Under the pieces are notes generated by a model. That model did not search any database and was not told the DNA's origin. It saw only the letters and a list, made by a program, of their open reading frames with translations. From positions 17,360,001-17,424,000 of the forward strand of contig NC_135830.1 in assembly GCF_964213995.1 (NCBI RefSeq): a DNA stretch of 64,000 nt, in the 5' to 3' direction. A program made the translations under genes and the position numbers. Below are positions 34,835 to 44,796 of the stretch, piece by piece. Each line of letters opens with the position of its first letter. Positions within the stretch are counted from its first letter, which is position 1. The stretch is from Mustelus asterias. Taxonomy: Eukaryota.

Positions 34835-35466
34835 ATGAGCGCGGCGATTTATATCATTTTGCTGCTGGCTTTCTTGTCGGGTGAGTAGTTTTTATTGTCA
34901 AAGTCTCTCAATGTTACTGTCTCAGTGTCAGTCTATCTCTGGAATATTCCAGAGTCAGCAATTATTTGACAAAGATTAGTCCTCGGGGCCATTTATTAAG
35001 TCACTTTTTCCGAGTCTGTTTTAATAATTGATTAATTCACTGAAATGTGTTTGGGTGGATTCTGTTTTGTGTTTTTTTTAATGACTCATGTGATATATTT
35101 TTACAGGTGTCCAGTCGGATGTTGTGTTGAGTTAGCCCGAGGCAGCGATCGGGCGTCGCGGACGCTCCCTGAGACTGACCTGTAATACCAGCGGCATCGA
35201 TCTTGGAAGCGACGGCATGCACTGGATCCGACAGGTTCCGGAACAGAGGTTGGAATTGTTGATTTACTACTTTAGTACATCAACCAGGAAATACGCCGCT
35301 GCGATTCAGAATCGATTTATTGCGAGCAAAAACATTTCAAACAATATCTTCGCTTTGGACATGGGGAGCCTCAAGAGCGAAGACACCGCCATCCATTACT
35401 GTGCAAAAGATAGCAGTGGTTACCATGTATCCTGGGGACAGGGCACCAAGGTGACTGTAACTTCAG
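34835..35466 (+). pseudogene. IGHV: Germline-joined IgM VH-D-JH (leader 34835-34880; VDJ exon 35107-35466) with an in-frame TAG at 35133-35135
   Basis: MSAAIYIILLLAFLS G|GTGAGT...TACAG|GT VQS DVVLS*PEA...[10 protein letters not shown]...MHWIRQVP...[56 protein letters not shown]. Shark IgM-type V; no RSS or intervening DNA between V and J. Confidence 0.9.
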
Positions 35467-37759
35467 GTAAGAAGCAGCCATTTATTAAGTAAGTTTTTCT
35501 GAGTCTCTGTTTTAAATTTTGGTCTATTTTAATAATATTAATTCACTGAACTGTGGTTGGGTGGATTCTTATTTGTGATTCTTTTGGAATGACTCATGAG
35601 GTTCTACTCAAAAAGGGATGCAGAATTCCGCTGTTTCTTGACAAATGTTTTAGCTGAGGGATCCAGTCCCCTCTTGTTGTGATTTGCTGTTGATATGCAG
35701 CTGTGTGACCGGCTAACTTCAAATACATGAAATCTTTTAAACAGTTGGACGTTACAAAAATGTTTATTTTCGATGACATCTAATCGCTGCAGATTTTATC
35801 ATGTTTGAAGTATGACACAAGCTGAAAAATGTGCTAAAATTTCGATATGTATTTGCTTAATATGAATTTATTTATTTAGTTTGATCCAACTATGCTGAAT
35901 TCAGTTGCAATTCTCCCATAAAGATGTTCAGTTTAACCTTTAATTTATTACGTAATGATGAGTTGTTTTGCTGCATTTTATATTGAGATTTTTTTGCAAT
36001 GTTGCATTTGATTCTGTTTGTCTGTTTGTAGAATTGAGCTGTTTCTCTCTGCATGCGGTTAAGTCCACTGAGTGATGCGATTTATGTTTTTGCTGTTGAG
36101 GAGATTGTTTCTGGGTGACTTTGAAATGTTAAAACTTGTGAAACGCTTTGTCGTTTCGGCATTGTTTAAACTCAGTGGCACTGAGCAGTTACATCTTTTG
36201 GATTCCATCCCTCTATTGATCTGAAACTTTTGGAAACGTGTTTGTAGGCAGAGAACAGGCAGACTTCAGAAATTAAACTATATATTTTTAATGTATTTCT
36301 TTATTTTTGTTGCAACTGGTGATTCAACTAATTCATGGTGTATGACGCTCATTCGGAACAACTTATTACTGCTATCGCAGAATTAATAACTTGTTTGGAA
36401 ATTGTAGAGCAAATTCATGACAACTCATAATATTATGTGGCTGCAATATACTTTAACTAAATATGCTTTCATGGTAATTTAACTCTATCACAATTTTGCA
36501 GCGCTCTGCATACGATCAACACTGCTAGAATTTTTTTTTTGGATTATGGTTCAAATTATTTCAACAAGAAGATACTGCGTCAACAGCAGTGTTAAGTTTT
36601 ACAAGTGGATTGGAAATAATTGTATCCCTGATGAAAACAGATGACTTGAAGTTTTCATTTACCAAAGCAGCAGTTTAACACATGTTTGGCAACATATGTA
36701 TGCAGTTAATACATTTTTGGTATTTTTATTCCTTCGCTGTTCTTGCTATTTGGATAGCGACATAATTGCCATTCCTCCAATCTGAGGCAGACTTCTGAGT
36801 AGTGAACATCGCTGGCAGTCGAGGAATTTATCAAACGATTTTATTTAAATTGTAGGACGGCTCATATTTTATATGATTAAACACTGACAAATCAAAGCAT
36901 GGCTTCAAACAATGAATATAATTTTTAAAAGCTAACTTAAGTTATGAGTTTAAGAACAAAATGTTGTCTCACATCACTGTCCTGTACAGAGAGTAGATTT
37001 ACAGCAGAAAAACAGATAATAGCTAGACCTTATTCATAATTCCCATTAAATATTAATTGGAACAACAGAAACTCAACTCGATTTGATCATTACTTTTCAA
37101 TGTTGCAGATTACCTCAATCACTTTTTTCTCATTAAGTTTATCATTTTTGCATATTCTGTCCATAAACAAAAGTATTTAAAATACATTTTCGTCGATTGT
37201 ACGAATCACCAGAGAAAATATGAAAGAAAAACTAAGTTATTAAAGTTAAGTATTATGTTTACCTATCATATTGGAGTTTCATTATAGTAATCCAGGGAGT
37301 CCTACTTCAGGGACGAGGTGATGTTACTGCCCATCATGTTAGTGCAGTGTGATTCCAGACAGATTTGAAAAGTCCTAAAACGTCCCACTCGTAAATTCAA
37401 CATGGAAAATAATCACTGAGGATATGATGCATTTAAAAACGTAGAGAGTTTATACGTTTATGGATAAATTAGGCATTCGGAGATATGACTCATTTCAAAT
37501 TGGTAAAATTAGATTAGACTTAATTAAATATAATATGGATGTGTGAGTGTTTCCATCTGATAATTTGAAATTGGTTCTAAAACAACAGCTAAGTGTCGTG
37601 TTAGCTTATTTTAACCCAATTGTTACATGAAGTACAAAGCAGAACACTTTTTGGAATCATTAAACAGTGTTTTGTTTTCATACTTTATAAATCAGGTATC
37701 AAGAAAATTAACCTGCAGCTTCTGAAGGAGGGCATTTATCTTCACTTGAAGTTAAAGTT

Positions 37760-38046
37760 TTTTTTAAAACTTTATTTATTAGTCGCAAGTAAGGCTTATA
37801 TTAACACTGCAATGTATTTACTGTGATAATTTCCCTAGTCGCCACACTCTATCGCCTGTTCGGGTCAATGTACTTAATTAGCACGCCTTTCAGACTGTGG
37901 GATCAAATCGGAGCACCCGGAGGAAACCCACGCAGGCACAGGGAGAACGTGCAAACTCCACACAGACAGTGACCCAAGCCAGGAAACGAACCCGGGTATC
38001 TGGCACCGTGAGGCAGCACTGCTACCCACCGTGCCACCGTGCCGCT
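37760..38046 (-). mobile_element. V-SINE (HE1-related)
   Basis: GGAGCACCCGGAGGAAACCCACGCAG core and tRNA-like head. Confidence 0.8.
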
Positions 38047-39290
38047 TGGAGAAGCTGGCCAAAGTTAGTCAGCATGGCTTCGTCAGAAGGAGGTCATGCC
38101 GAAAGTATTTGATTACTTTTTCAAGGAGGTGAACAGGGTAGTGAAGCCGATGGAGTTTCCATGGACTTCAGCAAAACCTTCGACAAGACCCCACATGGGA
38201 GACTTGCAATGAACATAAATTCACATGGGATACGAGGTGATTCAATCAAGTGCATTCAAAATTGACTCATTTGTCGGAGACAGAGGGCGATGACAGAAGG
38301 CTGCTGTAGTGACTGGAAGCCAATGTCCAGTGGCGTACCACAGGGATCTATCTTAGGGTGCGAATTGTTTGCCACTTACATAAATGACATTGGTAACTAT
38401 GTGGAGGGTACGATTAGTAAATTTGTGGATGAGACAAAGACTGGACAGGTGGTTAGCAGTGAGGCGGGGTGTCTTGGCCTACAAGACTACATAGATGGAA
38501 TGGTGAAATGGGCAGATAAGTGACAGATTAAATTTAACCATGAAAATTGTGAGGTGATACACTTTGGAAGGAGTAATTTGACAAGAAAGCATTAAATGAA
38601 TAGTACGACACAAGGCCGTTTGTCCACAAATCTCTGAAAGCAGAAGGGCATGTTAGTAGGGTGGTGAAAAACACATGTGGGACACTTACCTTTATCAATC
38701 GAGGCATAGAGTACAAAAACAGGGAAGTCATGTTGGAGTTGTATAGAACTTTGGTGAGGCCACAGCTGGTGTGTTGTGTATAGTTTGGAAGGATGTGACT
38801 GCACTGGAGAGGGTACAGAGGAGATTCACCACGATGCTGCCTTGGATAGAACATTTAAGTTATGAAGAGATGTTGCGTAGGCTTGAGTTGTTTTCAGTCG
38901 AGCAGAGAAGACTGAGGGGCGACCTGATGGAGTGTACAGGATTATGGGACATGGATAGAGTGGATAGGGAGCAGCTGCTCCCCTTAGTTGAAGGGTCCGT
39001 CCGAGGGACAGAGGTTCAACGTGCGAAGCAGGAGGTTGAGGCGAACGTGGGGAAAACGATTTTTACCCAGTGGGTTGTGATGGTCTGGAATTTGCTGCCT
39101 GGGAGGGTAGTAGAAGCGGGTTGCCTCACATCCATTAAAAAGCATCTGGATGAGCACTTGGCACATCTTAACATGCAGAGCTGTAGGCTAAGTTCTGGCA
39201 AATGGGATTAGGGGGGAGGTTAGGTGACCCTAAAGTGTCGCTGTGGACTCGATGTATCGAATGGTCTCTTATGTTCTCTATGATTGCTCA
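38047..39290 (+). mobile_element. Degenerate CR1 LINE RT fragment
   Basis: SGVPQGSILG...KFVDETK (38290-38523); LERVQRRFT...RRLRGDL (38771-39211). Confidence 0.85.
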
Positions 39291-39392
39291 TATTAGTGCG
39301 AATCATTTCAGCATAACAGATCTTTCCCAGTGGAGTAATTTAATGTCATTTCAGTGAATGCAAAATCCCATCAGTTCGGGAGAACGTTTAAG

Positions 39393-43911: not shown

Positions 43912-44373
43912 GTGAGACGTGAGATTAAAATGGTGCCTGTGCCTCTCCCCTACGCTGGTGGAAAGAACATTGTTTTTTTTTGTTGTTTTAGTGGATCACA
44001 CTGATAATTGATAATGCCACGAACCAAAACCTTTGAATATGCAGGGCATAGGTTTCAGGGAAAATTGTGCAAGGTAGCGAAAGAGAAAAAGAATACAAGG
44101 GTCGAATACTAGTCGAAAAAATTGTGGAGACTAAGCACTGGGGCGGAACGGCCTGTTTCTCTGCTGCCATTTCTATCCAACTTTCAAGTCCAACTCGCAG
44201 ATTTCGGAGAGAATGACGGCACTGGTCCGTACTCCGAGCAGGGTCACAATGCAAAGGGGACAAGGAAAATATTCTACATTCAGGAGAACACGGATTCCTC
44301 TCACACTTGTCAACCTCTTTCACTACTTCTGGAATTCTCCAGTTTATTGACATTTATTTTGCATTTTCTGCAG

Positions 44374-44765
44374 ATCCAAATCCTCGTGCACCGTCCGTCT
44401 CTGTCCTCCTGCCCTCGGCAGAAGAAGTCTCCGCTCCGAGATTCGTCTACCTCAGTTGCTTTGTGAGAGGTTTCTCCCCCCGAGAGATCTTTGTCAAGTG
44501 GACCGTCAATTGTCAGCCGGTGAATCCTGGGAACTACAGGAACACCCAGGTGATGGGGAAGAATGGCAATAGCTCATTCTTCATGTACAGCCTGTTATCC
44601 ATTGCAGCGGAGGAGTGGGCCAGCGGCGCTTCTTACTCCTGTGTGGTGGGACATGAAGCCATCCCCTTGAAGATCATCAACAGAACAGTTGATAAATCCA
44701 GCGGTAAACCTAGTTTTGTGAACATTGCCCTTGCACTGACAGACATCATCAATTCATGTGAATGA
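44374..44765 (+). CDS. IGHM: IgM heavy-chain Cmu4 exon with secretory tailpiece
   Basis: TGCAG|AT...[34 protein letters not shown]...[60 protein letters not shown]. Internal TM donor G|GTAAAC at 44703/44704. Confidence 0.92.
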
Positions 44766-44790
44766 GAAACAGTCGGTTACATTTCACTTA

Positions 44791-44796
44791 AATAAA
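44791..44796 (+). terminator. Polyadenylation signal of the secretory IgM transcript
   Basis: AATAAA 25 nt after the stop codon. Confidence 0.6.

Follow-up and report, generated by a model that had tools for sequence, protein, structure and literature searches.

The window analyzed here (G000:C71:17360001-17424000, a 64,000-nucleotide stretch of Mustelus asterias DNA free of N, where G000 is the genome analyzed and C-numbers are its contigs) harbors a germline-joined immunoglobulin M (IgM) minicluster from which genomic deletion removed Cmu1, Cmu2 and the transmembrane (TM) exon and whose variable (V) region contains a stop; we read it, with a probability of about 0.74, as a pseudogene on which constraint ended at about the time of the two-domain deletion or before it. 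A preliminary description of this DNA had proposed the relic of a functional "VH-Fc" antibody, an idea left mostly unsupported by the lack of any live paralog found, the pseudogene-like constant exons, an interface seemingly not remodeled across the family and a stop apparently shared with a second organism. The alternative raised in the same description, a deletion in a decaying gene, is the best fit to the data, with all six family contigs broken and a relaxed substitution pattern. The gene comprises the following features, in window coordinates.

34602..34834, + strand: immunoglobulin heavy chain (IgH) V promoter region with the TATTTAAAT box, closely alignable to the conventional-cluster promoter (~74% identity over 1.1 kb upstream)
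34835..34880, + strand: leader exon, 46 nt
35107..35466, + strand: germline-joined variable-diversity-joining (VDJ) exon, 360 nt, with TAG at 35133-35135, HYC and W47L, and a D1-derived core AGCAGTGG in complementarity-determining region 3 (CDR3)
35467..40400, + strand: retained J-Cmu1 intron with transposable element (TE) insertions, collinear and 60-70% homologous to conventional clusters
40410..41690, strand unassigned: presumed Penelope-like element with a nested short interspersed element, recognized from its sequence and an apparent target-site duplication and shared with C112/C138
41860..42735, - strand: fragment of a long interspersed element (LINE) without its last ~400 bp, with an RVT_1 match, adjoining the post-Cmu2 intron
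42736..43602, + strand: retained Cmu2-Cmu3 intron, beginning ~50-60 bp behind the lost Cmu2 exon
43603..43911, + strand: Cmu3 exon, open, 309 nt, N-terminal Cys changed to Tyr
44374..44765, + strand: Cmu4 plus secretory tail, open, with an extra Cys (D>C) and the tail sequon NIS changed to NIA
44791..44796, + strand: polyA signal AATAAA

All three exon boundaries are in phase 1 with GT/AG sites, and the leader-VDJ-Cmu3-Cmu4 frame contains a single stop, the TAG at 35133-35135; Pfam assigns the three domains to V-set, C1-set and C1-set. The exon limits and Pfam assignments bear out a prefused VDJ, phase 1 boundaries throughout and an in-frame join from VDJ to Cmu3 across the 8.1-kb J-to-Cmu3 intron, all as first described; the TAG, found both in the window and on contig C221, and the YYC>HYC change likewise stand. 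The VDJ junction retains an 8-nt core of the D1 segment known from unrearranged clusters, and no recombination signal sequence (RSS) is left. Window Cmu3 and Cmu4 are 71% and 85% identical at the amino acid level, respectively, to those of conventional clusters, and a tree agrees with mu-type constant exons. Four sequencing runs over 34600-36300 cover the introns, with no leader-to-V splice joint seen, and so behave as DNA. No RNA source was listed for the leader-VDJ stretch, a blank that carries no information on expression. The leader intron contains, at 34987..35090 (+ strand), ~105 nt duplicated from where the gene's J intron begins (86% identity to 35477-35598); this copy is absent from the conventional leader intron and is skipped by conventional contigs, and is possibly a templated insertion or duplication relic that may serve as a good ortholog marker.

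A conventional cluster at C71:13.5 Mb in this genome supplied the peptide queries for Cmu1, Cmu2 and TM. In the window, tBLASTn yielded no Cmu1 remnant (word size 2, E up to 10) and no match to the Cmu2 and TM peptides, and no TM exon was found in the rest of the window and the next 20 kb (39 kb in all); the absence of all three exons, noted originally by eye, is thereby confirmed. The intron had been described as AT-rich DNA and TEs only: TEs are indeed present, but conventional intron is kept in collinear order on both sides. Compared with five conventional clusters, the sequence is collinear with the J-Cmu1 intron up to ~37700, and an old TE segment prolongs this match to ~40300-40400 in three of the five; homology to the post-Cmu2 intron restarts at ~42736, 50-60 bp past the former end of Cmu2. 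These two retained intron segments map a true genomic deletion. Its right breakpoint lies inside the LINE at 41860-42735, just behind the old Cmu2: all six other copies of this element continue ~400 bp beyond 41860, where the window copy ends. Because the element is truncated there while the other copies run on, the deletion probably postdates LINE insertion. A deletion mediated by LINE integration itself was considered and dropped, since the element lacks a natural 3' end and was thus cut by a later deletion. Dating the deletion through the LINE gives a wide bracket only, of ~0.045 to 0.17 substitutions per site. Pfam gave no match for the presumed Penelope-like element at 40410..41690.

The family was sought in G000 by genome searches with Cmu3, V and J-intron DNA, and by protein searches (the best 150 of 441 and the best 150 of 952 candidates); among the matches listed it consists of six contigs, which probably represent two haplotypes of each of three loci. 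Locus A, represented by the window and C221 (99.97% identical over 40 kb), consists of VDJ with TAG and HYC, Cmu3 and Cmu4. Locus B (C71:9.51 Mb and C108) is V-only, with no C exon in ~45 kb downstream; it has the same join with CAG and YYC, and this stop-free V is nonetheless broken by C22Y and a frameshift in J (+2 nt). Locus C (C112 and C138) retains Cmu3 and Cmu4, leader and VDJ having been deleted, and carries the same Cmu1 and Cmu2 deletion in an intron 6-10% different from that of the window. Disabling lesions are present in six of six contigs, and the genome searches returned no intact paralog among the matches listed. The suggestion of a recently dead member with live paralogs gains little support, as no stop-free full paralog is among these matches and the stop is apparently not recent. 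That the layout reflects an assembly collapse, or somatic rearrangement of a single B cell, can practically be dismissed: the same deletion is found on C221 and on C112/C138, the latter with that degree of intron divergence, the breakpoints are flanked by orthologous intron, and the same VDJ junction recurs in the second locus and in contigs of a second organism (organism B).

Loci A and C are ~9% different at the deletion junction (a depth of ~0.045 per lineage), and loci A and B are ~6.4% different in V and the J intron (a depth of ~0.032). The deletion probably predates the stop, because C112/C138 share it at ~9% divergence and the ~6.4% diverged paralog lacks the TAG. At the J intron, organism B (runs X3 and X6) shows a depth of about one copy, at 93-97% identity; its V departs from that of the window by ~5% and its flanks by 4-7%, as expected of neutral DNA. 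Depth sums point to contigs without C at 35133 (44.9 - 37.3 = 2.4 + 5.17) and to a C retained at 35394 (83.9 - 76.2 = about 7.8), both states derived by depth arithmetic with the letters not displayed; the +2 in J is present. TAG and HYC thus appear to be shared with organism B and, if this is right, the stop would be older than the split of the two organisms and death of the gene would not be recent.

Branch rates for the constant exons were obtained from pairwise distances and three-point decomposition, with no codon branch model. For Cmu3 and Cmu4 together, the ratio of nonsynonymous to synonymous substitution rates (dN/dS) is 0.64 on the window branch (confidence interval, CI, 0.36-1.09) and 0.89 on the C138 branch (CI 0.50-1.70), against 0.32, 0.40, 0.27, 0.24 and 0.34 in open four-domain rows, 0.64 in a further such row (C166j) and 0.72 in the stop-bearing row L055. 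The ratio is thus raised (0.64-0.89 vs mostly 0.24-0.40 in conventional clusters), yet the intervals include 1. Taken alone, Cmu3 gives 1.04-1.25 and Cmu4 0.44-0.74; loci A and C compared directly give 0.57-0.62, not significantly under 1 (p 0.2-0.3), and the V of locus A compared with that of locus B gives 1.7-2.7, with 15-16 nonsynonymous and 2-3 synonymous changes. In columns invariant in other lineages, the family shows 11 amino acid changes to 1 silent change; the corresponding counts are 32:26 when five open lineages are pooled (Fisher p=0.022) and 40:7 for three stop-bearing rows (p=1.0). Substitutions next to one another are in excess in Cmu3 only (p=0.012; one of three domains). A two-phase model places the end of constraint at a depth of 0.06-0.09, within the bracket for the deletion. 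On these patterns, Cmu3 and Cmu4 look released from selection, with substitutions of a pseudogene-like kind.

Between loci A and C, divergence steps from ~8% to ~2% at Cmu3 and stays at ~2% onward, the flanks behaving the same as the exons. This step, together with a tract in the 3' half of Cmu4 that is near-identical to conventional clusters, would suit constant exons kept open by occasional use in trans (intercluster recombination, or splicing from another VDJ) or by gene-conversion refresh from functional clusters. Such an origin is very improbable, as Cmu3 differs by 17% from every conventional copy and shows no converted patch, and the Cmu4 3' tract is conserved in all clusters anyway.

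Several individual residues bear on function. The N-terminal Cys of Cmu3, which likely forms the inter-heavy-chain bond, is lost family-wide, although C is found in 10 of the 10 other rows aligned; the tail glycan sequon is also lost family-wide (NIS to NIA), and Cmu4 gained a Cys. At the former interface with the light chain variable domain (VL), W47L in framework region 2 is common to loci A and B, and W is conserved in 20 of 21 other V rows; only the window copy has G44R, and I37, L45 and W103 are unchanged. An analogy with the hallmark substitutions of camelid heavy-chain V domains (VHH) was considered and set aside, since the camelid-like G44R is confined to the window copy and W47L is the only one of the two VHH-like changes present family-wide. 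Judged by sequence, the light-chain interface appears not to be remodeled across the family.

Other observations weigh against the pseudogene reading. The promoter region, leader, splice sites and polyA signal of the window gene are all intact, and in four of four copies Cmu3 and Cmu4 have open frames and undamaged splice sites, as had been claimed for the window copy. With decay rates taken from the flanks (stop fraction 0.036; 0.037 frameshifts per substitution), neutral decay from a depth of 0.045-0.09 would leave both exons open with P=0.06-0.006, a figure chosen after the fact for a locus picked for its intact exons and affected by a 3' tract that looks homogenized between copies; the choice of locus and the 2% homogenized tract weaken this argument without removing it. 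The dN/dS intervals are wide, with both family intervals spanning 1, Cmu4 alone on the window branch has a ratio of 0.44 (CI 0.21-0.88), and the open rows L049 (6:0) and C166j (10:3) look relaxed too. Furthermore, the V lesions are private to locus A or to locus B within G000, with none shared, and as the A/B split (~0.032) is younger than the deletion (depth at least ~0.045), the deletion would have preceded the V lesions in this genome.

These observations leave room for a functional phase after the deletion, in which the gene would have encoded a V-Cmu3-Cmu4 homodimer of fixed specificity, secreted only and free of light chain, changing fast as Cmu3 adapted to its new neighbor, and would have died later. 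The in-frame splice geometry, the family-wide W47L, the relative age of the deletion and the exons open against neutral odds all speak for it, as does a CH1-less IgM cluster described for ratfish in PMC3149040. Set against it are the absence of a live copy among the six contigs, changes scattered alike over invariant positions of the V framework, Cmu3, Cmu4 and tail, the lack of a family-wide polar change at 37, 44 or 45, and the lost Cmu3 Cys with its likely inter-heavy-chain role. Moreover, the single copy of organism B apparently joins lesions of both G000 V copies, which points to a probable ancestral origin of one lesion or more, or else to recombination between the copies. Finally, the layout was seen in none of 37 mapped proteins, 13 of them with V, a weak negative since most are constant-region-only models. 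We consider such a phase unlikely, and retain it as a minority reading because the constant exons remain open. It is similarly doubtful that an ancestral shark had a working germline-encoded, secreted V-Cmu3-Cmu4 antibody of fixed specificity and without light chain, obtained by one LINE-bounded deletion.

The favored pseudogene reading would entail the following course. Joining of V, D1 and J by RAG in the germline would have come first, followed by a period in which the gene likely functioned as an ordinary prejoined IgM with four domains. Next, a LINE would have inserted just behind Cmu2, and a deletion running from the J-Cmu1 intron into the LINE would have taken out Cmu1 and Cmu2. Segmental duplication would have given three loci, which decayed further through loss of TM, loss of V in one locus and of all C exons in another, and acquisition of the stop, frameshift and Cys lesions. 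The window gene would yield no protein today.

Exon loss can also be viewed against the other IgM clusters of this genome. The Cmu3 matches listed number 106; the four weakest (33-40% identity) were dropped and 102 IgM-type matches kept, in 92 of which Cmu1 and Cmu2 lie no more than 12 kb upstream. Four have Cmu2 without a listed Cmu1 (one of these with a frameshifted Cmu1), the IgM1gj-type layout of Cmu1 without Cmu2 occurs in none of the 102 listed, and six lack both exons, comprising loci A and C and an unrelated pair (G000:C71:11805624 and C131:310673; L040-L046). This pair consists of Cmu3, a frameshifted Cmu4 and a TM exon, V being absent over 20-25 kb upstream, and its independent exon loss indicates that loss of upstream exons recurs in this genome as decay. 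Elsewhere, G000:C166:442819-457400 (L034-L035) has a VDJ completely joined in the germline together with four constant exons, all open, and is a candidate live prejoined IgM; further full VDJ joins occur at C71:4.73 Mb, 11.0 Mb and 7.32 Mb. Row L049 (G000:C71:10710001-10716000) carries a partial duplicate of the Cmu4 5' end (27 codons) 1.3 kb ahead of the full Cmu4.

The surroundings of the gene contain further elements. At window positions 22020-22343 (- strand), a V exon of TCR (T-cell receptor) alpha/delta type points away from the IgM gene; it is cut off before YYC in loci A and B, but in C112/C138 it is whole and carries YYC and what appears to be an RSS. It matches the TCR-type V exons between IgH clusters described in PMC12227049. 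Two open frames for rhodopsin-family seven-transmembrane G protein-coupled receptors, at 27287-28264 (- strand) and 49110-50072 (- strand), flank the IgM gene and move with the duplicated unit. A very G-rich purine tract of ~1.1 kb lies at ~18985-20150, where the GC fraction of the 2-kb bin reaches 0.60.

If decay accounts for the locus, as we favor, it illustrates the decay of shark IgM miniclusters through duplication, conversion and deletion bounded by TEs, and because an in-frame heavy-chain-only layout can arise through decay alone, a selection test is needed before a new isotype is named. Were the V-Cmu3-Cmu4 antibody real, it would constitute a further independent origin of heavy-chain-only antibodies, here an innate-like nanobody-Fc derived from IgM in one step, which may survive in related species and would support cluster organization as a cheap means of isotype invention.

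No germline shark VDJ-Cmu3-Cmu4 gene was found in the open-access literature, and one PMC3964593 supplement contained no match. Protein searches gave 1 match of 306 candidates for V (longer proteins) and 35 proteins for Cmu4, and a Cmu3 search of representative proteins gave no informative ortholog. Among the proteins (P0182, P0183, P0044) are two gene models from Callorhinchus milii in which Cmu4 directly follows a prejoined V, and a further model with V-Cmu2-Cmu3-Cmu4; as predictions, these are possible truncated joined IgM forms.

Compared with camelid heavy-chain-only antibodies, whose V domain is VHH, and with shark IgNAR, the window gene has the same order of V followed by Fc-like domains with no CH1; those systems have diverse rearranged V and a solubilized former VL interface, whereas the window gene has a fixed V, no hinge and a mostly hydrophobic interface. 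PMC3149040 describes a CH1-less IgM cluster of the spotted ratfish Hydrolagus colliei, proposed to be heavy-chain-only, and gives criteria for such antibodies, among them a CH1 that is absent or modified: the window gene resembles this cluster, and heavy-chain-only antibodies so defined, in lacking CH1, and differs from such antibodies in its one fixed prejoined VDJ and the lack of an open frame in any copy found. In this holocephalan CH1 loss is accompanied by CH2 duplication, whereas the window gene is broken and is missing two domains and TM. The green anole V-Cmu3-Cmu4-TM splice form described in PMC4279169 has the same domain order, but is a membrane-bound RNA form of a complete gene, in contrast to a genomic deletion with a secretory tail only. 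Germline-joined clusters and nurse shark IgM1gj (P0159), which lacks Cmu2 and pairs with a joined light chain, are covered in PMC4279169 and PMC5192425; like the window gene, IgM1gj has a fully germline-joined VDJ in an IgM cluster, a lost constant exon and a secretory tail. IgM1gj keeps Cmu1, lacks Cmu2 only, pairs with light chain and is expressed in neonates, whereas the window gene lacks both Cmu1 and Cmu2 and has another CDR3 and a stop. Orthology to IgM1gj was rejected, as the two do not group in the tree (deep nodes weakly supported) and identity is below that to conventional IgM, with window Cmu3 68% identical to Triakis IgM vs 55% to IgM1gj. Nurse shark IgM pseudogenes are mentioned in PMC2435157. 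Finally, with the germline-joined elasmobranch IgM clusters at large (VD, VDD and VDJ, pseudogenes included) the window gene shares a prejoined VDJ, a D1-derived core, the absence of RSS and a setting in the IgH/TCR-alpha-delta complex, differing only in which constant exons are lost.

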